DNA of 14,367 nucleotides from a virus (Duplodnaviria; Heunggongvirae; Uroviricota; Caudoviricetes). Below, piece by piece: positions 1-14,367 of this stretch; positions within the stretch are counted from its first letter, which is position 1; every line of letters begins with the position of its first letter. The notes under the pieces are model-generated. The model was not told the DNA's origin, searched no databases, and worked only from the letters and a program-made list of their open reading frames with translations. The position numbers and the translations under genes are program-made. The stretch is from positions 1 to 14,367 of the IMG/VR virus record IMGVR_UViG_2562617113_000020; one strand, given 5' to 3'.

Positions 1-648
1 ATGAAACACCGGACCTGGATCACTGAAGCTTTACGTCTTCACTTTGAAGAACATTTACCCCGGGTTGTGGCCGGGCGTCGCCTGGGTGTACCAAAATCAA
101 CAGTTTGTAGTATGTTCGTGCGCTTTCGGAGAGCTGGCCTTTCGTGGCCTTTGCCCGCAGGCATGTCGGAGCAGGAACTTGATGCCTGCCTTTACGGACA
201 ATTTTCCACGGTACCAGTCGTACGTCCTGAAAGCACCGTTATATCCGAAGCCCCCGTGGTAAAAAAACGTCCCCGGCGGCCCAACTTCCCTTATGAGTTT
301 AAAATCGCCTTAGTGGAGCAGTCACTGCAGCCCGGAGCCTGTGTGGCGCAGATCGCCCGGGAAAACGGAATCAACGATAACCTGCTCTTCAACTGGCGCC
401 ATCAATACCGGAAAGGTGGCCTGCTGCCTTCCGGAAAAAATATGCCGGCACTGCTTCCCGTGACGTTAACGCCGGAGCCGGATAATAAAATCCCGGCCCC
501 CGCACAGGAACCAGAGCAGATAAATACACCGTCCGACAGTCTGTGTTGTGAGCTGGTTCTGCCGGCCGGAACTCTCAGGCTTAAAGGTAAACTGACGCCG
601 GCGTTATTACAGACACTTATCCGCGAAATAAAAGGGAGCAGCCACTGA
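1..648 (+). CDS. tnpA: IS66-family accessory protein TnpA (Orf1), helix-turn-helix; possibly N-terminally extended (215 aa; alternative start at Met55)
   Basis: ORF begins at window base 1; C-terminal half (PRRPNFPYEFKIALVEQSL...VAQIARENGINDNLLFNWRHQYRKG) matches the IS3/IS66 Orf1 HTH pattern; stop overlaps tnpB start (ATGA at 645-650). Confidence 0.75.
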   Translation: MKHRTWITEALRLHFEEHLPRVVAGRRLGVPKSTVCSMFVRFRRAGLSWPLPAGMSEQELDACLYGQFSTVPVVRPESTVISEAPVVKKRPRRPNFPYEFKIALVEQSLQPGACVAQIARENGINDNLLFNWRHQYRKGGLLPSGKNMPALLPVTLTPEPDNKIPAPAQEPEQINTPSDSLCCELVLPAGTLRLKGKLTPALLQTLIREIKGSSH

Positions 649-2616: not shown

Positions 2617-2664
2617 GGCTATACGCGCTTTGGCAGGTAATGAAAAATTAATCTGTTAATGAGT

Positions 2665-2687
2665 CCCACTCCGGTGGGATTTTTTAT
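2665..2687 (+). terminator. Short hairpin (CCCAC-tccg-GTGGG) followed by ATTTTTTAT; possible intrinsic terminator at the IS/prophage junction
   Basis: 5-bp stem, 4-nt loop and T-run read directly in sequence, 14 bp upstream of the DNA circulation gene start; weak stem. Confidence 0.25.
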
Positions 2688-2700
2688 GTACGGAGTTTAT

Positions 2701-4029
2701 ATGACGTGGAAAGACAGACTTCAGGACGCGTCATTTCGCGGTGTGCCGTTTAAGGTTGAAGAAGAAAGTGCGGGAACCGGTCGTCGTGTGGAAACGCACG
2801 AATACCCGAACCGCGACAAACCCTATGCCGAAGACCTGGGGAAAATCACTTTCCGCCCGTCCATCACGGCTTATGTGGTGGGAGATGACTGCTTTGACCA
2901 GCGCGATCGCCTGATTGACGCGCTGAATAAACCCGGTCCCGGCACGCTTGTCCATCCGACATACGGTGAGCTGAAAGTCTGTGTTGACGGGGAGGTTCGG
3001 GTCAGCACATCGAAGAGTGAAGGGCGTATTGTCCGCTTTGACCTGAAGTTTGTCGAAGCGGGAGAACTCTCTTACCCCACATCAGGTGCGGCGACGGCGC
3101 AGACGCTGATGTCATCCTGTTCTGCACTGGATGACTGCATCAGTGACAGTTTCAGTGGTTTCAGTATCGATGGCGTGGCAGATTTTGTGCAGAACGACGT
3201 CGTCGGTAATGCCAGCACAATGCTTGGGTATGTTTCTGATGCGATGAAAGTGGTGGATTCTGCCGTATCGGATGCCGCCAGGCTGTTGCAGGGGGATATC
3301 TCGGTACTTCTGCCGCCGCCATCGTCAGGCAAAAATTTCGTTGAGCAGGTGCAGAAAATGTGGCGTACCGGGAAACGCCTTTATGGTAACGCCAGCGACC
3401 TGGTCACCATGATCAAAACGCTTTCCGGTGTCAGCCTCGGCAGCGATCTGCAACCGCGCGGCGTCTGGAAAACGGACAGTAAAACCACCGCCACGGCGAC
3501 GCAGCAGCGTAACGTGGTTGCCAGCACCCTTCGTACGACCGCAATCAGCGAAGCGGCGTATGCCGTCACCCGATTGCCTGCGCCAACAACTTCCGCGGTG
3601 ATGCAGAATGCCGCAGTGGAGCAGGCAACAACACCTGCGCAGAGCACTGGCTGGCCTTCCGTCACGCATCCGGCACTGAACAATGCACCGGCGGTGAAAA
3701 ACACGGTTGACCTGCCGACGTGGGAAGAACTGACTGACATTCGCGACACACTGAATACGGCAATTGATAAGGAGTTGTCCCGTACAACCAGTGATGCGCT
3801 GTTTCTGGCGCTGCGCCGGGTGAAAGCAGATCTGAATGCGGATATCAACACGCGCCTTGAACAGTCTGCACGGATCATTCAGCGCACACCGGATGAGGTT
3901 TTACCCGCGCTGGTGCTGGCGGCGACCTGGTTTGATAACGCGGCGCGTGACGCGGACATTATCCGGCGTAATGCCATTACGCATCCCGGCTTTGTGCCGG
4001 TGATCCCTCTGAAGGTGCCAGTGCAATGA
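2701..4029 (+). CDS. Mu-like phage DNA circulation protein (Mu gp43 family)
   Basis: N-terminus MTWKDRLQDASFRGVPFKVEEE...HEYPNRDKPYAEDLG matches the DNA circulation N-terminal domain; RBS GGAG at 2692-2695; the longest ORF (from 2659) would add 14 aa that run through the upstream hairpin. First gene of a co-directional tail/baseplate operon. Confidence 0.85.
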   Translation: MTWKDRLQDASFRGVPFKVEEESAGTGRRVETHEYPNRDKPYAEDLGKITFRPSITAYVVGDDCFDQRDRLIDALNKPGPGTLVHPTYGELKVCVDGEVRVSTSKSEGRIVRFDLKFVEAGELSYPTSGAATAQTLMSSCSALDDCISDSFSGFSIDGVADFVQNDVVGNASTMLGYVSDAMKVVDSAVSDAARLLQGDISVLLPPPSSGKNFVEQVQKMWRTGKRLYGNASDLVTMIKTLSGVSLGSDLQPRGVWKTDSKTTATATQQRNVVASTLRTTAISEAAYAVTRLPAPTTSAVMQNAAVEQATTPAQSTGWPSVTHPALNNAPAVKNTVDLPTWEELTDIRDTLNTAIDKELSRTTSDALFLALRRVKADLNADINTRLEQSARIIQRTPDEVLPALVLAATWFDNAARDADIIRRNAITHPGFVPVIPLKVPVQ

Positions 4030-5105
4030 ACGACAATGTCACGCTACGGGTAAATGGCCGGGAGTGGAATGGCTGGACATCGGTGCGCATCGGTGCCGGT
4101 ATTGAACGGCTGGCGCGGGATTTCAGTGTGGAGATCACCCGCCAGTGGCCGGGTGATGAGGGTATCACCACGCTTCAACCGCGCATTAAAAACGGTTCAA
4201 AAGTGGAGGTGCTGATTGGTGATGAGCTGGTGATCACCGGCTGGGTGGAGGCGACGCCCGTTCGTTACGATGCCCGTTCGGTCAGCACCGGTATTGCCGG
4301 ACGCAGTCTGACCGCTGACCTGATTGATTGTGCAGCCGAACCGACACAGTTTAACGGACGATCACTGGTACAGATTGCGCAGGCGCTTGCTGCGCCCTTC
4401 GGCATTGAGGTGGTGAACAGCGGTGCGCCGTCGGGTGTTATTCCTGATGTCCAGCCTGATCACGGTGAAACGGTGATCGAGGTGATTAACAAAATACTCG
4501 GTCAGCAGCAGGCGCTGGCTTATGACGACCCGCACGGCAGGCTGGTGATTGGCGGTATTGGCTCAACGCGGGCACATACCGCGCTGGTACTTGGGGAAAA
4601 CATCCTTTCCTGCGATACGGAGAAGAGTATCCGGGAGCGGTTTTCTGTTTACCAGGTGGCGGGGCAGCGTGCCGGAAACGACGATGATTTCGGTGAGGCC
4701 ACCACAACCGCGCTGCGGGCCCGCACAGAGGACGCATTTATTGCCCGTTACCGTCCGATGTATATCAGGCAGACAGGGCAGGCTACGGGGGCAGGCTGTA
4801 TTGCGCGTGCTGACTTTGAAGCCCGACAACGGGCGGCGCGGACGGATGAAACCACCTATGTGGTGCAGGGCTGGCGACAGGGTAACGGTACGCTGTGGCA
4901 GCCCAACCAGCGGGTGATTGTCTTCGATCCGGTCTGTGGTTTCGACAATACCGAACTGCTTGTCTCGGAAGTCACGTTTACTCAGGACCAGAACGGAACC
5001 CTGACGGAAATCCGTGTCGGCCCACCTGATGCTTATCTGCCTGAACCCGAAGCCCCCGGCGCGCGGAAAAAGAAAAAAGCCAGAGTACAGGAGGACCCGT
5101 TCTGA
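4026..5105 (+). CDS. Mu gp44 (P)-like tail/baseplate hub protein (late control D-like)
   Basis: 359-aa ORF with start overlapping upstream stop (ATGA); position and size match Mu gp44 after the DNA circulation gene. Confidence 0.7.
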   Translation: MNDNVTLRVNGREWNGWTSVRIGAGIERLARDFSVEITRQWPGDEGITTLQPRIKNGSKVEVLIGDELVITGWVEATPVRYDARSVSTGIAGRSLTADLIDCAAEPTQFNGRSLVQIAQALAAPFGIEVVNSGAPSGVIPDVQPDHGETVIEVINKILGQQQALAYDDPHGRLVIGGIGSTRAHTALVLGENILSCDTEKSIRERFSVYQVAGQRAGNDDDFGEATTTALRARTEDAFIARYRPMYIRQTGQATGAGCIARADFEARQRAARTDETTYVVQGWRQGNGTLWQPNQRVIVFDPVCGFDNTELLVSEVTFTQDQNGTLTEIRVGPPDAYLPEPEAPGARKKKKARVQEDPF

Positions 5106-5653
5106 TGAGGACGATTGAAGCCATGCAGCGACAACTCCTCGGCCTGATTGGGCGGGCCGTGGTGAAAAGCATCAGTGCCGCCACGAAATGTCAGACCGTG
5201 GATGTGTCCCTGATTGCCGGTGAACCCAAAGCCGGGGTTGAACATCTTGAACCCTACGGTTTTACCGCAAGGGCAAACAGCGGTGCGGAAGCGGTGGTGT
5301 TGTTTCCGGATGGCGACCGTTCTCATGCGGTGGTTGTTACGGTGTCGGACCGGCGCTACCGCCTGAAAGGGCTGCAGACGGGTGAGGTGGCTGTCTATGA
5401 CGATCAGGGGCAGTCCGTGACGCTGACCCGGACGGGTATCGTGGTGGACGGCGGCGGGAAAACGCTCACGTTTCGCAATGCGCCCAGAGCACGTTTTGAA
5501 ATGGACCTGGAAGTGACCGGACAGGTGAAAGACCTGTGCGACTCCGGCGGCACCACCATGTCAGCGATGCGGCTTGCCTATAACGGGCATCGTCACAGAG
5601 AGAACGGTCAGGGCAGTAACACCGACAAACCTGATAAAGCGATGGAGGCATGA
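5105..5653 (+). CDS. Baseplate assembly protein V / Mu gp45-like spike protein
   Basis: 182-aa ORF translationally coupled to neighbours; size and position match the gpV/gp45 small spike protein. Confidence 0.7.
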   Translation: MRTIEAMQRQLLGLIGRAVVKSISAATKCQTVDVSLIAGEPKAGVEHLEPYGFTARANSGAEAVVLFPDGDRSHAVVVTVSDRRYRLKGLQTGEVAVYDDQGQSVTLTRTGIVVDGGGKTLTFRNAPRARFEMDLEVTGQVKDLCDSGGTTMSAMRLAYNGHRHRENGQGSNTDKPDKAMEA

Positions 5654-6066
5654 TGGAACTGTGGCTGACGGTGAACGGTAAATGCACCTGTGCCAGCGCA
5701 CCGCTGGAGCCGCTGACCCGCGCTGTGGTGATTTCCCTGTTCACCTGGCGGCGGGCGGAGCCTGATGACAATGCCGACGTCCCGATGGGATGGTGGGGGG
5801 ATACCTGGCCTGCGGTACAGAATGACCGTTACGGCTCCCGACTGTGGCTGCTTCAGCGCAGCAAACTGACCAATCAGCTGGTGCAGACAGTAAGGGGGTA
5901 TATCCGCGAATGCCTGCAATGGATGATTGATGACGGCGTGGTGTCCCGTATTGATCTGGATATCCGCCGCACCGGGATTAATGAACTGGGTAACAGTATC
6001 ACTCTCTGGCGTCGTGACGGACCGGTAATGATTTCTTTTGATGATCTGTGGAGTGCGATAACGCAT
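5650..6066 (+). CDS. Mu gp46-like baseplate protein (GP46 family, gp25/lysozyme-like wedge)
   Basis: 142-aa ORF overlapping both neighbours by 4 bp; conserved position between spike and baseplate J genes. Confidence 0.7.
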
Positions 6067-7123
6067 GGCGGACAGTGAATTTCAGCGCCCGACGCTGGCA
6101 GAAAATATCAGTATGCTCCGTAACGATTTATTCGCCAGGCTGGACGTCAGCGACACGCTCCGGCGCATGGATGAAGACGTGCGGGCAAAGGTGTATGCGG
6201 CGGCGCTGCATACGGTTTACGGGTACATCGATTATCTGGCAATGAACATGCTGCCTGACCTGTGCGATGAGTCCTGGCTGGCGCGACATGCTGCGATGAA
6301 ACGGTGTCCGCGCAAGGGGGCCACGGCTGCCAGCGGGTATATGCGCTGGGAAGGTGTCAGCGATGGCCTGAAGGTGACCGCCGGGAGTGTTATTCAGCGC
6401 GATGACCTGGTTCAGTATACTGCAACTGCCGATGCAACCAGCTCCGGTGGTGTCCTGCGCGTGCCGATCGCCTGCTCAAATGCAGGCGCGGTCGGTAACG
6501 CTGACGACGGTACGGCATTAATCCTGGTCACGCCGGTGAATGGTCTGCCGTCTTCCGGTGTGGCTGACACCCTGACAGGCGGATTTGATACTGAAGAGCT
6601 GGAAACGTGGCGCGCCCGCGTCATTGAGCGGTATTACTGGACGCCGCAGGGCGGGGCTGACGGGGACTATGTCGTCTGGGCTAAAGAAGTGCCCGGCATT
6701 ACCCGCGCATGGACATACCGTCACTGGATGGGAACGGGAACTGTCGGTGTGATGATTGCCAGCAGTGACCTGATTAATCCCATTCCGGAAGAATCAACGG
6801 AAACGGCGGCAAGACAACATATCGGGCCACTGGCCCCGGTGGCAGGCTCTGATTTGTATGTGTTCAGGCCGGTGGCACATACGGTGGATTTTCATATCCG
6901 CGTGACGCCGGACACACCGGAAATACGGGCTGCCATCACCGCGGAGTTGCGTTCGTTCCTGCTGCGTGATGGTTATCCGCAGGGAGAACTGAAGGTATCG
7001 CGTATCAGTGAGGCGATTTCCGGTGCGAACGGGGAATACAGCCATCAGTTGCTTGCACCGGCAGACAATATCTCCATTGCAAAAAATGAACTGGCGGTAC
7101 TGGGGACGATTTCATGGACGTGA
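6065..7123 (+). CDS. Baseplate J-like protein (Mu gp47 / JayE-like)
   Basis: 352-aa ORF; size, position and sequence character match the baseplate J family in Mu-like and e14-like tail modules. Confidence 0.8.
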
Positions 7124-7698
7124 CAAACGATGATTACATCCGTCTGTTGTCGGCACTGTTGCCCCCCGGTCCGGCGTGGTCAGCCGGCGATCCGGCGATT
7201 GCCGGTGCGGCACCGTCATTAACCCGCGTTCATCAGCGTGCGGATGCCCTGATGCGGGAGCTGGATCCGCGCACAACCACCGAACTGATAAACCGCTGGG
7301 AGCGTCTGTGCGGCCTGCCGGATGAATGTATTCCGGCAGGGACGCAGACCCTTCGCCAGCGTCAGCAACGGCTGGATGCGAAGGTTAATCTGGCGGGCGG
7401 CATCAACGAGGATTTTTACCTTGCACAGCTTGCTGCCCTGGGCAGACCAGACGCCACCATCACGCGATACGACAAAAGCACGTTCACCTGCTCATCTGCC
7501 TGTACTGACGCGGTGAATGCGCCGGAATGGCGGTATTACTGGCAGGTCAACATGCCAGCCGCCACCAACACCACCTGGATGACATGTGGCGATCCCTGTG
7601 ATTCCGCACTGCGTATCTGGGGGGACACCGTTGTCGAGTGCGTGCTTAACAAACTCTGCCCGTCGCATACCTACGTAATTTTTAAATATCCGGAGTAA
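7114..7698 (+). CDS. Mu gp48-like tail protein (P2 gpI-like, DUF2313; YmfQ-like)
   Basis: 194-aa ORF overlapping the J gene stop; located immediately upstream of the tail-fibre gene as in Mu and e14. Confidence 0.7.
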
Positions 7699-7701
7699 TC
7701 C

Positions 7702-8364
7702 ATGCATCGTATAGACACGAAAACCGCGCAGAAGGATAAGTTCGGCGCGGGTAAAAACGGTTTTACCCGTGGTAACCCCCAGACTGGCACGCCTGCTACC
7801 GATCTGGATGATGACTACTTTGACATGTTGCAGGAAGAGCTTTGTGGCGTGGTGGAGGCATCCGGTGCCAGCCTGGAGAAGGGGCGAAACGACCAGTTGC
7901 TTACCGCGCTTCGTGCGCTGCTGTTAAGTCGCAAAAATCCGTTTGGCGATATCAAATCGGACGGCACGGTGAAAACGGCTCTTCAAAACCTTGGTTTGGG
8001 AGAAGCGGCAAAACGGGATGTGGGGACAGGGGAAAATCAGATACCGGACATGGCCTCTTTTGCCAGTGGTGATGGATGGATGAAATTACCCAACGGGAAA
8101 ATCCTGCAATATGGTCGTGGTGCGGTTACGCCGACATTATCGACGCAAACAATGAGAATTACATTCAGCATCCCTTTCCCCAAAAAAGCGGACTGCGCCA
8201 TGCTTACTCATTCTGGTGATGGCGGTGCGCCTTTAGGCGCTGGGCGAGGGTTCGTGATGACTGCAGAAGGCCCAACGTTAACCGGCTTTAATTCTGCTTA
8301 CAGAACGTCATCAACCAGCGACACGGTATCGATGAATTACAGTTGGTGGGCTGTTGGTGAGTAA
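7702..8364 (+). CDS. Tail fibre protein, current orientation (constant N-terminal part 7702-7992 joined to invertible variable part Sv 7993-8364)
   Basis: RBS CGGAG at 7691-7695; 220-aa product; the gix-like crossover site lies inside the ORF (codons ALQNLGLGE), as in phage Mu S and e14 stfP. Confidence 0.8.
7979..8004. repeat. gix/hix-like recombination site (left): CTCTTCAAAACC-TT-GGTTTGGGAGAA
   Basis: 12+2+12 bp site with AAACC/GGTTT symmetry around a central dinucleotide; a 15-bp perfect inverted repeat (7991-8005 vs 9824-9838) is shared with the right site. Confidence 0.75.
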
Positions 8365-8375
8365 TTTTATTCAGG

Positions 8376-8828
8376 GTGATTTATATGAACGAATATGTTT
8401 ATAGCGCAAGGCATAATGCTTTTTTCCCTGTGGATATGATTGATAAATATAAATCAGAGGGATGGGATTTATCAGATGCTAAGGAAGTGAATCAAAATAT
8501 TATCAGTGAGTTTATGGCTGAACCGCCACAAGGAAAAATCCGTATTGCCGGAAATGATGGGCTGCCTGCGTGGGCAGATATTCCTCCACCCACGCATGAA
8601 GAGCTTATTGAAATTACTGAATCAGAAAGACAGCTATTAATTAACCAGGCCAACGAATACATGAACAGTAAACAATGGCCCGGTAAAGCCGCTATTGGTC
8701 GTCTGAAAGGTGACGAACTGGCGCAATATAATTTGTGGCTGGATTATCTGGACGCACTGGAGCTGGTCGATACTTCCGGTGCGCCAGATATTGAATGGCC
8801 TACGCCTCCGGCAGTTCAGGCCAGATGA
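8376..8828 (+). CDS. Tail fibre assembly protein (Tfa / Mu U-like), expressed in current orientation
   Basis: 150-aa product with N-terminal NAFFP motif and conserved C-terminus (LDYLDALELVDTSGAPDIEWPTPP) typical of Tfa chaperones. Confidence 0.85.
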   Translation: MIYMNEYVYSARHNAFFPVDMIDKYKSEGWDLSDAKEVNQNIISEFMAEPPQGKIRIAGNDGLPAWADIPPPTHEELIEITESERQLLINQANEYMNSKQWPGKAAIGRLKGDELAQYNLWLDYLDALELVDTSGAPDIEWPTPPAVQAR

Positions 8829-9402
8829 CATCCGGCGCGGTGCTGGTATCTGTTGCCGTCACCGCGTCAATGTAATCCAGCACAGCGTTAAGGCGGGTTG
8901 TTTCTGCCTGCGTCAGTTTACGTCCGGCCTGCAATTTCAGCTGAATCAGACTGATGGAGGCCATTGCAGTATCAATCAGCGACTGGCGCTGTGCTTCTGC
9001 TGCATCTACTGCTGCGCCGTGCTGTGCCTCGGTATCCGTCACCCATTTCTCACCATCCCATTTATCGTATGGCGTTAACGGGGCGATAGTGGTTGTATTA
9101 TCAGGGTAATCACCCGGAGCTGTGATTTCTTTTGATTCCCCTGTTTCGGTGCTAAAAACGATTTCACCGCGATGGTCTGGCATATATTCCCATGATTTTA
9201 AATCTGCTGAACGGCAGATAGTATAACCAGCCTTATATATACCAGGAGCATCTAAACAGGAATACGCCGGAATACCGACACCCACAACAAGATATTCGGT
9301 TGATGTGGAAAGATATTCCTTCGTCTCAGCATCAAAATTATAAACGGTAATGTTTCCTGCCTTTGTAGTAATGAGTTCGCTATTTAATACGGCTTTATTC
9401 AT
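8800..9402 (-). CDS. Alternative tail fibre assembly protein (Tfa' / Mu U'-like)
   Basis: 200-aa product with conserved Tfa C-terminus (LDYIDAVTATDTSTAPDVIWPELPEA); convergent with and overlapping the + strand tfa by 29 bp at the centre of the invertible segment. Confidence 0.85.
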   Translation of the reverse strand: MNKAVLNSELITTKAGNITVYNFDAETKEYLSTSTEYLVVGVGIPAYSCLDAPGIYKAGYTICRSADLKSWEYMPDHRGEIVFSTETGESKEITAPGDYPDNTTTIAPLTPYDKWDGEKWVTDTEAQHGAAVDAAEAQRQSLIDTAMASISLIQLKLQAGRKLTQAETTRLNAVLDYIDAVTATDTSTAPDVIWPELPEA

Positions 9403-9838
9403 CAGGCTGCCCTCACGATATAGTTAAATGCGACGTTGCGCGGCCGGGTTTCAGAACCACCAACCGATACCGTAGAAATTGAATTTGCCGTAATAAGTTC
9501 CCCGAAAGCATCAGCCGTAACTACGAACCGACCTCCCGTTGGATCAAAACCTGTTAGCGCATAGTACTTGTCAAACCAGTGCCCATGAGAAGCAAATAAA
9601 TGGTCTTGAGATGTCAACAAACCACGAGAGGAATCCACCCCGCGCCCATCATCCCATCCACGAATAAATTCACCGCGTAAATCAGGCAATTTATTTGTCG
9701 GGTAAGCCTTTGCCAGTTCCGGGTATTCTTCAGCAGAAAAAGCCGCACCATTGCATTTCAGCCAGCCTGTTGGCGGAGTGGCTGAAGGCCACGGAACAGG
9801 CACCCCAACAGGTAATGCTGAGCCTTCTCCCAAACCAA
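9402..9838 (-). CDS. Alternative tail-fibre variable C-terminal segment (S'v), lacking its own N-terminus; would fuse in frame to the constant part after inversion
   Basis: Reverse-strand ORF whose stop overlaps the tfa' start (ATGA); reading frame across the right gix site encodes N-V-G-L-G-E, matching N-L-G-L-G-E at the left site, so inversion gives an in-frame fusion. The 9839-9878 extension with ATG is read-through into the gix-gin spacer. Confidence 0.7.
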
Positions 9839-9850
9839 CGTTTATGAAAA
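9825..9850. repeat. gix/hix-like recombination site (right): TTCTCCCAAACC-AA-CGTTTATGAAAA
   Basis: Inverted copy of the left site; inner half-sites are 12/12 identical, outer half-sites diverge; lies ~55 bp upstream of the invertase start. Confidence 0.75.
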
Positions 9851-9904
9851 TGCAGAAATAACGAGCAAATGGCATCATTCCTGCTTTTGTCAGGGAGATC
9901 TACC

Positions 9905-10459
9905 ATGCTTATTGGCTATGTACGTGTGTCAACAAATGACCAGAACACAGATCTACAACGTAATGCGCTGAACTGTGCAGGATGCGAGCTGATTTTTGAA
10001 GACAAGATAAGCGGTACAAAGTCCGAAAGGCCGGGACTGAAAAAACTGCTCAGGACATTATCGGCAGGTGACACTCTGGTTGTCTGGAAGCTGGATCGGC
10101 TGGGGCGTAGTATGCGGCATCTGGTCATTCTGGTTGAGGAGTTGCGCGAACGTGGCGTTAATTTTCGCAGCCTGACGGATGCTATTGATACCAGCACACC
10201 GATGGGGCGTTTTTTCTTTCATATGATGGGTGCCCTGGCTGAAATGGAACGAGAACTGATTGTTGAACGAACAAAAGCTGGACTGGAAGCTGCTCGCGCA
10301 CAGGGACGAATTGGTGGACGTCGTCCCAAACTTACACCAGAACAATGGGCACAAGCCGGAAGATTAATTGCAGCAGGAACTCCTCGCCAGAAGGTGGCGA
10401 TTATCTATGATGTGGGTGTATCGACTTTGTATAAGAAGTTTCCGGTCGGAGATAAATGA
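9905..10459 (+). CDS. pin: Serine DNA invertase, Gin/Pin/Hin/Cin family
   Basis: Product MLIGYVRVSTNDQNTDLQRNAL...LVVWKLDRLGRSM...RSLTDAIDTS...GRFFFHMMGALAEMERELIVERT...GRIGGRRPK is a near-canonical Gin/Pin sequence (catalytic Ser in VRVSTNDQ); RBS AGGGAG at 9892-9897; 184 aa from ATG 9905 (the ORF track begins at an upstream ATG, 9869). Confidence 0.92.
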   Translation: MLIGYVRVSTNDQNTDLQRNALNCAGCELIFEDKISGTKSERPGLKKLLRTLSAGDTLVVWKLDRLGRSMRHLVILVEELRERGVNFRSLTDAIDTSTPMGRFFFHMMGALAEMERELIVERTKAGLEAARAQGRIGGRRPKLTPEQWAQAGRLIAAGTPRQKVAIIYDVGVSTLYKKFPVGDK

Positions 10460-10479
10460 AACCGTAGCACGTCGTATGC
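10459..10479 (+). repeat. Direct repeat copy 1 (AAACCGTAG-CACGTCGTATGC), immediately after invertase stop
   Basis: Matches 11479-11500 (AAACCGTAGGCACGTAGTATGC) at 20 of 22 aligned positions; the pair brackets the GIY-YIG gene. Confidence 0.4.
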
Positions 10480-10516
10480 AAGATCGTGCTGCGGTTTATG
10501 CTTATCACTTAAAGAC

Positions 10517-11692
<1,176 letters not shown>

Positions 11693-13124
11693 ATGTCTGA
11701 ATTTGAAGTGTTGGCACAGCATCTGCTGAAGGAAGCCGAGGCGGAAGAAAAGCTGCGACAGGAAAATGATAAAAAGCTTATCGAGAAAGTGCTGGAAATC
11801 TATGATCAGAAGTATGTGGCTGAATTACTGAGAAAAGTCGGAAAAAATGAGTGGAGCCGTGAAACCATTAACCGCTGGATTAATGGCAAGTGTTTACCAA
11901 AATCGTTGACTTCAGTAGAAGAGTCTCTTCTGCGTAAGATGCTACCAGAACCACCTGCAAACCATCCGGAATATGCTTTCCGCTTCATTGACTTATTTGC
12001 TGGAATTGGAGGGATACGGAAAGGTTTTGAGGCCATTGGAGGCCAGTGTGTTTTTACCAGTGAATGGAATAAAGATGCTGTGCGTACATACAAGGCCAAC
12101 TGGTTTAACGATGAACAGGTGCATAAATTCAATCTCGATATTCGGGAAGTCACGCTGAGTGATAAAACCGATGTATTGGAAACGGATGCTTATGCATATA
12201 TTGATGAGCATGTGCCGGATCATGATGTGCTTCTTGCGGGGTTCCCGTGCCAGCCATTTAGCCTTGCTGGTGTTAGTAAGAAAAACTCACTTGGTCGTGC
12301 GCATGGTTTTGAATGTGAAGCACAAGGAACACTTTTTTTGACGTGGCACGTATTATACGAGCAAAAAACCGGCAATTTTTGTGCTGGAAAATGTCAAAAA
12401 TCTGAAGAGCCATGATAAGGGTAAAACTTTCAAAGTCATTATGGAGACCCTTGACGAGCTGGGCTACGAAGTTGCCGATGCTGCAGAAATGGGAAAAAAC
12501 GATCCAAAGATTATCGATGGGAAGCATTTTTTGCCTCAGCATCGTGAACGCATTGTTCTGGTCGGATTTAGACGAGATCTGAATATTCACAAGGGGTTTA
12601 CCTTGCGTGATATCAGTCGTTTTTATCCGGAACACCGCCCATCATTTGGTGAATTGCTGGAGCCTGTAGTCGACAGTAAATATATACTTACGCCAAAACT
12701 ATGGGAGTACCTTTATAACTACGCCAAAAAGCATGCAGCCAAGGGGAATGGTTTTGGCTTTGGGTTGGTCAATCCTGAGAATAAGGAAAGCATTGCACGC
12801 ACACTTTCTGCCAGATATCACAAAGACGGATCAGAAATTCTTATTGATCGTGGTTGGGATATGGCAACGGGAGAGGCTGACTTTATGAATGAGAGTAACC
12901 AGGCTCGTCGACCACGCAGGCTGACTCCCCGAGAGTGCGCACGCCTTATGGGGTTTGAAAAACCTGGAGGGAAACCATTCCGTATTCCGGTTTCAGATAC
13001 TCAGTCATATCGGCAGTTCGGTAACTCCGTTGTGGTGCCAGTATTTGAAGCCGTTGCCAGACTTCTGGAACCCTATATCCTCAAAGCTGTTTCTGCTGAT
13101 GCTGGTAAGACTGGGCAGCCTTGA
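11693..13124 (+). pseudogene. ecoRIIM: EcoRII-like / Dcm-like C5-cytosine DNA methyltransferase (CCWGG family); frame interrupted by two -1 indels in a T7 tract (12333-12339) and an A6 tract (12363-12368)
   Basis: Motif I FxGxGG ([15 protein letters not shown]) and motif IV PCQ ([12 protein letters not shown]) in the first frame; [15 protein letters not shown] and C-terminal [11 protein letters not shown] in a second frame; the intervening frame reads [10 protein letters not shown], so two single-base deletions explain the split (ORFs 11651-12415 and 12381-13124). Confidence 0.85.
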
Positions 13125-13130
13125 GAACAC

Positions 13131-13153
13131 CTCCCGGCCTTTTAAGCCGGGAG
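13131..13153. terminator. Hairpin between the convergent M and R genes (CTCCCGGC-cttttaa-GCCGGGAG); possible bidirectional terminator
   Basis: 8-bp perfect stem between the two stop codons (13122-13124 and 13159-13161); no flanking U-tract on either side. Confidence 0.35.
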
Positions 13154-13158
13154 TCAGC

Positions 13159-14367
13159 CTATGATAGTTCAGCGTAAAGTTCTATCAGCTCAGTAATGAA
13201 TGCTCCGAGCGTTATTAATTCTTCTCTAACTGCTTCTGGGTATTTTTTATGTAAAGTTGATGGTACAACGAGTCTGACACCCGCATCTTTCATTTCTCGG
13301 TATTGTGCTGAAGAAACACCTTCTTGCAGCGTAAATAAATGTACCTGATGGATTTTATCTGCTTCATTCAGTATCTGACGCCAGCGATCTTTGCAGGTGG
13401 TCTTTACTGCCAGCATACGTAAGTTTTCTACAGGAAATTCAACGTTATGATATGCCTCTGCTGAAGGAAACAGGAAATCTGGTTTTTTATTACCTTCAGT
13501 AACTGCCTGAGTGGAGAAATGCCGTAGTCCGTGCTCGATAAAAAGCTTCTCTAGGTGAAGTTCAAGTGATTTACCTGCCCTTGATTTACGTCGATTACTG
13601 ACAGAGTTGGCTAATGCAATAAACTCATCTACAGAATCGAATCCTTTCTTAATAATATCAAGAACATGTAATTCCTCGACGAGTAGAAAAATATCATACT
13701 CGACACGCCGACGGTCAATCAGTTGCTCATCTGGATCCTTGGAGTTTTTAGCATAATGGCCAGCAGCATATTGAATAATTTCGTTTCCAGAAGGAAAACG
13801 CTTCTTCCAGTCTTCAGGAATAACATATTTATGATTTACTGGAGTTTGCTGAAGAGACAATCCGCCCAAAATTTGTCCGGCAGGGCCGGAAATTAGGGTT
13901 CCAGGTATGATTTCGCCAATAGCAGACTCGATGATATCCTCTTCATCGGGATTGACGCAGACCCATATATCTACCTCGGAACAGTCAGTGTTCTGTTCGT
14001 TTAACCTGAAGGCAAGAATTGTGAGGGCTCCTGTATTTTCAGGGTTCTGTAATGGACTTCCTCTCCCCCAGCGCGTAATTCTTTTTTCGCTTCGGGTCTT
14101 ACCAAAATAACGGTTGTTGTAATAAATTGCGCGTGCTTGGGTATCAGGGCAATCATGGGATGATACATGCGCAGTAAGGAAGACTGAAGGGTTCAGTTCG
14201 CGAGTATGATTGATAGATGGAAAAAGCTTTTCAACGATATTTGAGGGGATATAAAGTCCGACCTGATGGCCACCTGTTGCGCCTGTGTCGTTTGCAGAAA
14301 GGCGTTTGATGTAGATAAAGTAATTCCCGCTTGCGATATCAAGCAGCCAGTTATGAAAAACCGACAT
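13159..14367 (-). CDS. ecoRIIR: EcoRII-like type IIE restriction endonuclease (CCWGG), apparently full length (402 aa)
   Basis: Product MSVFHNWLLDIASGNYFIYIKRLSANDTGATGGHQVGLYIPS... corresponds, from memory, to the R.EcoRII N-terminal effector domain and C-terminal catalytic domain; convergent with the methyltransferase as in EcoRII; start codon is the last three bases of the window. Confidence 0.9.
   Translation of the reverse strand: MSVFHNWLLDIASGNYFIYIKRLSANDTGATGGHQVGLYIPSNIVEKLFPSINHTRELNPSVFLTAHVSSHDCPDTQARAIYYNNRYFGKTRSEKRITRWGRGSPLQNPENTGALTILAFRLNEQNTDCSEVDIWVCVNPDEEDIIESAIGEIIPGTLISGPAGQILGGLSLQQTPVNHKYVIPEDWKKRFPSGNEIIQYAAGHYAKNSKDPDEQLIDRRRVEYDIFLLVEELHVLDIIKKGFDSVDEFIALANSVSNRRKSRAGKSLELHLEKLFIEHGLRHFSTQAVTEGNKKPDFLFPSAEAYHNVEFPVENLRMLAVKTTCKDRWRQILNEADKIHQVHLFTLQEGVSSAQYREMKDAGVRLVVPSTLHKKYPEAVREELITLGAFITELIELYAELS

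Follow-up and report, generated by a model that had tools for sequence, protein, structure and literature searches.

The window analysed here is a stretch of 14,367 nucleotides, and its right half carries a tail-fibre gene, two tail-fibre assembly chaperone genes, a second fibre tip on the opposite strand and a DNA invertase gene, together with a pair of short inverted sites. The features of this locus are the following.

7702-7990, plus strand: N-terminal constant region of the fibre (codons 1-96 and base 1 of the Leu97 codon); orthologue of the constant part of K-12 e14 StfP.
7702-8364, plus strand: fibre A (220 aa) in the assembled orientation, made of the constant part and a 124-aa tip (tip A) with a Gp53-like C-terminal domain.
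7979-8004, plus strand: left recombination site (pixL-like, 26 bp), CTCTTCAAAACC TT GGTTTGGGAGAA, with the crossover dinucleotide at 7991-7992.
7991-9838: invertible P segment, 1848 bp from crossover to crossover dinucleotide.
8385-8828, plus strand: tfa, assembly chaperone of tip A (147 aa; Pfam Caudo_TAP, E 3e-30).
8800-9402, minus strand: tfaE-like gene, assembly chaperone of tip B (200 aa; Pfam Caudo_TAP, E 6e-33).
9402-9836, minus strand: silent tip B with a collar domain (about 145 aa; Pfam Collar PF07484, E 1e-15).
9825-9850, minus strand: right recombination site (pixR-like, 26 bp), reverse complement TTTTCATAAACG TT GGTTTGGGAGAA, with the crossover dinucleotide at 9837-9838.
9905-10459, plus strand: pin, serine DNA invertase (184 aa; Pfam Resolvase E 3e-52 and HTH_7 E 6e-15).
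9923-9990, plus strand: predicted homologue of the recombinational (Fis) enhancer, inside pin.

Protein alignment showed that the constant part is near-identical to StfP through the peptide NLGLGE, and residues 1-103 of the fibre match PHROG tail-fibre families. The Gp53-like domain of tip A covers residues 128-219 of fibre A (Pfam PF21882, E 3e-12), and the exact fibre A protein was found on 5 public contigs. The tfa gene, which is called likewise in identical contigs, and the tfaE-like gene converge on each other with an overlap of 29 bp. Tip B as assembled is joined only to a 13-aa leader (MMPFARYFCIFINV), giving an ORF of 158 aa at 9402-9878. After inversion the leader ORF becomes 137 aa long and tip B sits on the constant part, forming a 241-aa fibre B, and this exact protein is present in public data, where it was read on 22 contigs. 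A comparison of both tips with known fibre domains had been proposed in a preliminary description of this DNA. PDB sequence searches gave a weak match of tip A to the short tail fibre 9zd7 and matches of tip B to the collar regions of T4 gp37 and gp12; these are generic (a short-fibre C-terminus and a collar), and from them a receptor could be assigned to neither tip.

The pin gene lies 55 bp from the right site. Its reading frame is intact, with a GGAG Shine-Dalgarno sequence 7 nt 5' of the ATG, and the product carries a Resolvase domain at residues 3-135, including Ser9 in the motif YVRVSTNDQ, and an HTH_7 domain at residues 138-180. The size, the catalytic Ser9 and the HTH domain of Pin are those of the small serine recombinases of the Hin/Gin/Cin/Pin group, and the protein is 96.2% identical to K-12 PinE, 79.9% to P7 Cin and 76.6% to Mu Gin. 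The preliminary description had expected an enhancer in the 5' part of the invertase gene. A gapless alignment placed a predicted homologue there, at nt 19-86 of pin, with 52/68 positions identical to the enhancer annotated in the P7 cin record and 66/68 to K-12 pinE; binding of Fis to it is predicted by homology only. The predicted enhancer would start 85 bp from the right crossover, and the equivalent distance in Hin is about 100 bp (PMC3798978). A scan for consensus promoters and terminators over 7400-10700 gave counts not above those of shuffled sequences, with none assignable to pin or to the leader ORF.

The two recombination sites lie in inverted orientation and, as read from the sequence, are equal at 20/26 positions, with a central TT in both. 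The inner half-sites agree at 12/12 positions and the outer ones at 6/12, and the perfect block common to both sites is 15 bp long (7991-8005 and 9824-9838). An inverted-repeat search returned the pair as a 20-nt arm with 95% complementarity, and the exact 15-nt inverted repeat at the sites is the sole one in the 14-kb window. These results bear out the preliminary description, which had claimed two inverted 26-bp gix-like sites with a 15-bp perfect core and identity of the inner half-sites only, an asymmetry that is also seen in P7 cix and is absent in Mu gix. With the same central dinucleotide and the form of inverted imperfect palindromes, the pair resembles the sites used by the Hin/Gin/Cin/Pin group. 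No third copy was found in the window at up to 3 mismatches to the core, and a multi-site inversion system with at least 3 sites, such as Min of p15B or the shufflons, was ruled out on this count.

The length of the repeat is not rare by chance. An exact 15-nt inverted repeat appeared in 62/300 shuffles of the 14-kb window, and 19/200 shuffles had two or more core matches when up to 3 mismatches were allowed, so repeat length alone was dropped as an argument for a real site. The significance of the sites therefore rests on the gix/cix/pix pattern, the reading frame, the adjacent invertase and the natural breakpoints. The shuffles also lend something to the view that the repeat is a mere coding motif (NxGLGE) of two fibre genes, whose orientations in the databases come from assembly errors or RecA recombination, and the repeat does encode a conserved peptide. 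However, the half-site pattern AAACC-NN-GGTTT is common to the window sites and to Mu gix and P7 cix, which were extracted for comparison. Furthermore, the right site is equal at 26/26 and the left at 24/26 positions to the experimentally mapped sites of K-12 e14 (PMC12529663), and the intact invertase located 55 bp away is 96% identical to the active PinE.

The position of the crossover relative to the codons was the same on both strands. The central TT (7991-7992) forms positions 2-3 of the Leu97 codon in the plus-strand ORF starting at 7702, within the peptide NLGLGE, and the central AA (9837-9838) forms positions 2-3 of the Val14 codon in the minus-strand ORF starting at 9878, within NVGLGE. 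Because the crossover falls at codon positions 2-3 of Leu or Val in the site-encoded N-x-G-L-G-E, the 96-aa constant N-terminus is joined in frame to either tip. Inversion in silico converted the 220-aa fibre into an open fibre of 241 aa with the frame kept, exchanging 124 aa for 145 aa, and vice versa, on a constant part of 96 aa plus one base. The locus thus has one constant N-terminus and two in-frame C-termini, each with a Caudo_TAP gene downstream, as in a tail-fibre exchange. Mu gix (NLGLQE) and P7 cix (Y/NLGLRE) follow the same rule, their crossover occupying positions 2-3 of the codon for this Leu. The preliminary description had put the crossover at these codon positions of NxGLGE in both variants, and had proposed an in-frame swap of a tip of about 124 aa (with tfa) for one of about 145 aa (with tfa') on a short constant part closer to e14 stfP than to Mu S; all of this was recovered here, the 96 aa being the length found in StfP, versus 169 aa in Mu S.

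Public sequences contain both orientations. The window as given corresponds to contig L012 at 100% identity, and the window inverted in silico matched other public E. coli contigs equally well, namely L018 at 100.000% over 7119 nt and L021 at 100.000% over 5718 nt, the match to L021 spanning both junctions. Contig L016 showed 0 mismatches to the inverted form over 11753 nt. Exact copies of both predicted inversion products, the 241-aa fusion and the 137-aa orphan ORF, were found in a public protein collection. The clonal isolates CH458 and CH423 have 100% identical flanks and differ solely in the equivalent inversion, with breakpoints at locus positions 4387-4406 and 6288-6307, which are the repeat. 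Among complete E. coli genomes, 61 carry the window orientation (at least 80% coverage) versus 66 the inverted one; the best genome matches overall are of the inverted form, with 98.0% in one piece, and O157:H7 strains occur in both orientation groups. The segment is thus found inverted in nature with its breakpoints in the sites, as in the Hin/Gin/Cin/Pin systems. The preliminary description had named as fatal to the switch a lack of inverted-orientation reads combined with an inactive invertase, or else an out-of-frame fusion. The switch was not refuted in this way: pin is intact, the fusion is in frame, and the exact allele exists inverted in nature at 100%. No evidence contradicting the inversion mechanism was met.

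These observations also leave the coding-motif explanation with a negligible probability. The breakpoints fall exactly in the repeat in independent closed genomes as well as in draft contigs, and the split between orientations is about even in more than 120 complete genomes. Moreover, repeats of 15-20 bp are too short for efficient RecA recombination. Loss of pinE, alone or together with pinQ, locked the K-12 segment in one orientation (Kirigo et al., PMC12529663), which points to the invertases rather than to RecA.

A frozen relic, in which the sites and the gene look intact but inversion has stopped through the altered left outer half-site or a lack of pin expression, was considered as well. 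The left outer half-site is changed at 2/12 positions compared with K-12 and the other relatives examined, and the orientation-B relatives L016 and L017 have a 1-nt deletion in pin, which means that locking does occur in the lineage. However, both orientations of this very allele, variant half-site included (Q95 in the protein), turned up at 100% identity, and CTCTTCAAAACC, the variant half-site, retains the TC..AAAACC pattern seen in half-sites of Mu and P7. The window copy of pin is complete, encodes Ser9 and is preceded by a good Shine-Dalgarno sequence, and Pin-family invertases other than the local one can act in trans (PMC12529663). We consider such a relic very improbable, and we infer that switching is ongoing in the source strain (GCA_000247665.4). 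A 33-nt exact pattern of the variant left site had no match in the genome contig collection and was found in 3 metagenome loci, all with other P-segment contents, which makes them uninformative on the orientation of the window allele.

Taken as a switch that inverts, the region can with high confidence be assigned to an E. coli prophage of the e14 family with a Mu-type tail, as its Pin/pix invertible P segment. The locus is the well-known e14 Pin/P-segment system itself, as the orthologue of that in K-12, and is already known. The e14 P-segment switch was reportedly described by Plasterk and van de Putte in 1985, and an earlier study of the P segment is attributed to Mehta et al. in 2004. It was re-examined by Goldberg et al. 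2014 (PMC4272514), who found both e14 orientations side by side in MG1655-derived cultures, and by Kirigo et al. 2025 (PMC12529663), who mapped the inversion in K-12 to TTGGTTTGGGAGAAGG, showed that it is driven by both PinE and PinQ, and found the segment inverted in 33% of 562 genomes.

The K-12 e14 locus has the same gene order as the window, ymfQ-stfP-tfaP-tfaE-stfE-pinE, with ymfQ upstream and pin downstream, and shares the 96-aa constant part, the crossover phase and the 29-bp overlap of the convergent tfa genes; its segment measures about 1.8 kb against 1848 bp here. The NCBI pipeline annotates the switch genes (pinE, tfaE, stfP). At the DNA level, window positions 6336-8014 are 96.7% identical to e14, the match ending just past the left site, the other flank is 93.7% identical, and 8724-9452 is 89% identical to the tfaP-3'/tfaE region, while positions 8015-8723 and 9453-9637 did not match e14 DNA. 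The sequence of tip A bears no relation to that of the K-12 StfP tip. Tip B and K-12 StfE have in common the collar domain and the C-terminal ETRPRN-AFNYIVRAA, but tip B differs in the middle, which is 20 aa shorter. Since the K-12 StfP and StfE tips are not those of the window, the window holds an allelic cassette variant of the same switch. The surroundings also differ: the window switch adjoins a full Mu-type baseplate module (gp44-48 homologues), which in K-12 e14 is deleted down to the jayE pseudogene, and a GIY-YIG gene and an EcoRII-like restriction-modification system stand beside pin where K-12 e14 has mcrA. The window is without an attachment site. Relatives adjoin paoD, not icd, so that prophages of this type probably integrate elsewhere than e14 does.

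Likenesses to other inversion systems were found as well. In the C segment of P1/P7, the invertase Cin is 79.9% identical and the fibre C-terminus is swapped together with chaperone genes. The P7 cix sites, also 26 bp long and centred on TT, agree in their inner half-sites and have diverged in the outer ones. Their crossover occupies positions 2-3 of the Leu codon in xLGLRE, and the 5' part of cin has an annotated enhancer. Unlike the window, P1/P7 has a segment of about 4 kb, a very long constant part of S, different tips, and cin at the Sv' end adjoining cixL. The G segment of Mu shares an invertase of 76.6% identity (Gin), the AAACC-NN-GGTTT core, the crossover at positions 2-3 of Leu in NLGLQE, the S/U versus S'/U' logic and an invertase gene just outside the right site, but its two gix sites are fully identical with a central TC, its constant part has 169 aa and its segment 3 kb. 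The H segment of Salmonella resembles the window in the invertase family and the 26-bp hix sites, and its Fis enhancer inside the invertase gene (PMC3798978) has a predicted counterpart in pin, whereas Hin flips a promoter and lies inside its segment; in the window the invertase is outside and a coding C-terminus is exchanged. The P2-like Escherichia phage pro483 carries the tips, both tfa genes and the invertase (91.5% DNA identity over 72% of a 3-kb query), but on a different fibre constant part. Its match begins at query position 389, where the recombination site lies, a sign that phages of different types exchange the cassette there.

By analogy with the characterized invertases of this group, dimers of Pin would bind the two 26-bp sites and bring them into a synapse, presumably on an enhancer occupied by Fis within the first ~90 bp of pin. 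Cuts staggered by 2 nt would then be made by Pin at the central TT of each site, half of the complex would turn through 180 degrees, and religation would leave the 1848 bp inverted. In the assembled orientation the Gp53-like tip with tfa downstream would be produced as the 220-aa fibre A, and in the inverted orientation the collar-domain tip with the tfaE-like gene downstream as the 241-aa fibre B. Virions of two receptor specificities, or cryptic products where the prophage is defective, could in this way arise from a lysogen population. The Fis and enhancer dependence, the strand-exchange chemistry and the host-range consequence are thus expected from related systems; a need for supercoiling and for sites in cis is a further trait of the Hin/Gin/Cin/Pin group. 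At 1-2616 the window has an IS66-family element directly beside the baseplate genes, in the place taken by the tape-measure gene in relatives. This copy of the prophage may not make virions, and a host-range role may be vestigial in it.

An alternative, which we hold to be unlikely, is that the switch still inverts but in this degraded prophage is kept for host defence rather than for phage host range. The leader ORF would then express whichever tip faces it as a free receptor-masking protein; by sitting on a receptor in the outer membrane, this tip would keep other phages from adsorbing, as has been reported for StfE2 of K-12 e14 against T2. The proposal draws on Kirigo et al. 2025 (PMC12529663), who reported the blocking of T2 by StfE2 at the K-12 orthologue of the locus. 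This leader ORF is present in the window as well (158 aa before and 137 aa after inversion), and both exact proteins are public; the IS66 element truncates the tail module upstream, and defence genes, the GIY-YIG gene and the EcoRII-like restriction-modification system, adjoin pin. However, the T2 result does not carry over to the window, because the K-12 StfP tip, from which StfE2 is formed, has no sequence relation to tip A. An AGGA lies only 0-3 nt from the leader ATGs, a poor Shine-Dalgarno spacing, and the promoter scan gave no signal above shuffles. Near-identical relatives (L011 and L016) keep an intact tape-measure gene, and isolated phages carry the invertase (vB_EcoM-689R6, 96.7%) and parts of the cassette, which fits an ordinary virion function. 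A defensive role would alter the benefit of the switch and leave its mechanism as it is. If true, inversion would toggle which incoming phages are excluded, with a specificity different from that in K-12, as the tips are different.

As a discovery the invertible tail-fibre segment carries little weight, because knowledge of the Pin/P-segment switch dates from the 1980s and its phase variation in culture has been shown. The case nevertheless shows that a site-specific recombination switch can be mapped to the base by reading the sequence without tools. The occurrence of the identical allele in both orientations in public assemblies means that pipelines call the silent tip "partial" or a separate protein, and that some of the fused fibres are mislabelled "integrase". 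Because N-L-G-L-x-E and the crossover phase are common to Mu, P1/P7 and e14, cassettes of tip, chaperone and invertase are exchangeable between unrelated fibre shafts, as in pro483.

The preliminary description had placed an invertible tail-fibre switch between two inverted 26-bp gix-like sites sharing a 15-bp perfect core, and both sites were read directly from the sequence.

7979-8004, left site, 26 bp: CTCTTCAAAACC TT GGTTTGGGAGAA
9825-9850, right site, 26 bp, reverse-complemented: TTTTCATAAACG TT GGTTTGGGAGAA

The sites matched at 20 of 26 positions, with identical inner and diverged outer half-sites, as had been noticed. The perfect core covered 15 bp (7991-8005 and 9824-9838), within 20-nt arms (7986-8005 and 9824-9843) found by a repeat finder and sequence reading to be 95% complementary. 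An exact 15-nt inverted repeat was present in 62 of 300 shuffles and is thus unremarkable by length alone in 14 kb; it was the sole one in the window, where a search for a third copy of the core with up to 3 mismatches gave none. The significance of the repeat rests on its context, not on its length. A second inverted repeat inside the segment (8738-8755 and 8864-8881, 18 nt, 83% complementary) is not a recombination site; it reflects similar C-terminal peptides of the convergent chaperones (..LDYLDAL.. and ..LDYIDAV..).

The central TT occupied codon positions 2-3 of Leu97 in the plus-strand ORF 7702-8364 (NLGLGE) and of Val14 in the minus-strand ORF 9402-9878 (NVGLGE), the phase claimed for the crossover dinucleotide within NxGLGE. 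In silico inversion of 7991-9838 gave an open fibre of 241 aa, with a constant part of 96 codons plus one base (predicted at about 97 aa) and alternative tips of 124 and 145 aa, showing that the proposed exchange of tips stays in frame. Every number in the preliminary description proved correct.

The gene content was as follows.

2659-4029, DNA circularization / baseplate hub, Mu-type baseplate homologue upstream of the segment
4026-5105, gp44-like, likewise
5105-5653, gp45-like, likewise
5650-6078, gp46, likewise
6065-7123, Baseplate J / gp47, likewise
7114-7698, gp48 / YmfQ, likewise
8385-8828, plus strand, chaperone after tip A (Caudo_TAP)
8800-9402, minus strand, chaperone after tip B (Caudo_TAP)
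9905-10459, pin, serine recombinase of 184 aa (Resolvase and HTH_7 domains, Ser9)

The chaperone genes are convergent, with a 29-bp overlap. The C-terminal domain of tip A is Gp53-like, and tip B carries a phage tail collar domain; a PDB search with tip B gave matches to T4 gp37 and gp12 in their collar regions. The pin gene starts 55 bases beyond the right site, with GGAG 7 nt before its ATG. For the fused fibre of 233-241 aa (7702-8364 joined to 9402-9836), many of the copies in databases are named "integrase" by their sources, an annotation error propagating through that fibre family.

The region is orthologous to the invertible P segment of e14, a cryptic prophage of K-12, annotated there in the order ymfQ - ycfK(stfP) - tfaP - tfaE - stfE(pseudogene) - pinE. 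Identity to e14 was 96.7% over 6336-8014, ending just beyond the left site, and 93.7% over 9638-10461, which opens in the N-terminal portion of tip B (homologous to stfE) and runs through pinE; the tips lying between these two stretches gave no match to e14. The right site was identical to that of e14 (26/26), the left site had two outer mismatches, which replace E95 by Q95, and Pin was 96.2% identical to PinE. In K-12, inversion was mapped to TTGGTTTGGGAGAAGG; PinE drives it, as does PinQ, and one third of database genomes have the inverted form (PMC12529663). The mapped sequence is the same core as in the window sites. Cultures derived from MG1655 contain both orientations side by side (PMC4272514). 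The system is already known: the window carries an allele of the e14 Pin/P-segment switch that differs in its tips.

The window was 100% identical to AHZD02000023.1 (L012; GCA_000247665.4), and the inverted orientation, which the preliminary description had proposed looking for, was found in public contigs. The in silico inverted window matched L021 across both junctions (100.000% over 5718 nt), L018 (100.000% over 7119 nt) and L016 (0 mismatches and 3 single-base gaps over 11753 nt). The predicted 241-aa fusion is an exact protein in the public protein collection and was read on 22 contigs; the 137-aa ORF predicted at the other junction is an exact protein there as well. Between the clonal hospital isolates CH458 and CH423, both flanks were 100% identical and the sole difference was the inverted interior, with alignment blocks overlapping exactly across the 20-bp repeat. 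Among 5426 complete E. coli genomes, the cassette type lay in the window's orientation in 61 and inverted in 66, with O157:H7 strains in both lists; the best matches overall were the inverted form (98.0%, single piece). The identity with e14 and this direct evidence of inversion exclude a mere coding motif or an assembly artefact. A frozen relic that no longer inverts is unlikely, given an intact pin and the occurrence of one and the same allele in both orientations. These results confirmed the original observation and supported its interpretation.

The contigs L016 and L017, both with the collar-tip fibre fused, share a 1-nt deletion in pin (~8603-8721, ~ window 10400); no pin gene is called there, and the deletion would put the HTH domain out of frame. 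In these copies the switch may be locked in the state that expresses the collar-tip fibre, or the deletion may be a sequencing error.

Between the right site and pin, a 13-aa leader (MMPFARYFCIFINV; 9839-9878, minus strand) is in frame with whichever tip faces it, giving an ORF of 158 aa now and 137 aa after inversion. This leader-plus-tip ORF (9839-9878 with 9402-9836), labelled a separate tail protein by annotation pipelines, is the counterpart of K-12 stfE / StfE2. It is possible that it serves host defence, as claimed for StfE2, and the interruption of the tail module by IS66 and the defence genes adjoining pin point weakly that way; however, its Shine-Dalgarno spacing is poor, the tips differ from those of K-12, relatives are intact, and the same invertase occurs in isolated phages.

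The IS66-family element and the cargo were located as follows.

1-2616, IS66-family element at the start of the window
1-648, HTH_Tnp_1 ORF of the element
648-995, TnpB_IS66 of the element
1015-2124 and 2299-2586, DDE_Tnp_IS66 transposase of the element, split
13159-14367, minus strand, EcoRII-like endonuclease, intact, adjoining the methyltransferase

The element adjoins the DNA-circularization / baseplate-hub gene, where the near-identical contigs L011 and L016 have a tail tape-measure gene; the window prophage is therefore interrupted or truncated at IS66. Comparison with the related loci L001, L005 and L013 identified the slot directly downstream of pin (10517-14367) as a variable position for cargo or defence genes, holding here a LEM-3-like GIY-YIG gene and an EcoRII-like restriction-modification system, and elsewhere mcrA (K-12 e14), a TrlF-family AAA ATPase (OkiPb01716) or an HNH protein (L013). 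The Dcm/M.EcoRII-like C5 cytosine methyltransferase (11651-13124) is split into two ORFs of 254 and 247 aa by two 1-nt homopolymer deletions 30 nt apart, T7 vs T8 and A6 vs A7 (near 12333-12339 and 12363-12368), relative to relatives >99.9% identical with an intact 477-aa gene. The pattern looks more like miscalled homopolymers in an old draft than a genuine pseudogene; should the split be real, the endonuclease would rely on host Dcm for protection.

The stretch 9923-9990 at the 5' end of pin, starting 85 bp from the right crossover, gave gap-free alignments with the annotated enhancer of P7 cin (52/68) and with K-12 pinE (66/68). By analogy with the invertase family, Fis would bind, Pin would cleave with a 2-nt stagger, and subunit rotation would follow. 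The half-sites follow the pattern seen in Mu gix and P7 cix, as read from the phage records. P7 cix shares the central TT and the combination of identical inner with diverged outer halves, whereas in Mu the two gix sites do not differ at all and have TC at the centre. Mu, P7 and the window alike place the crossover at codon positions 2-3 of Leu in N/Y-L-G-L-x-E, and the frame rule is therefore a family trait. The P2-like phage pro483 has the cassette at 91.5% identity, the match beginning at the recombination site. Presumably, the frame rule lets tip cassettes move between fibres.
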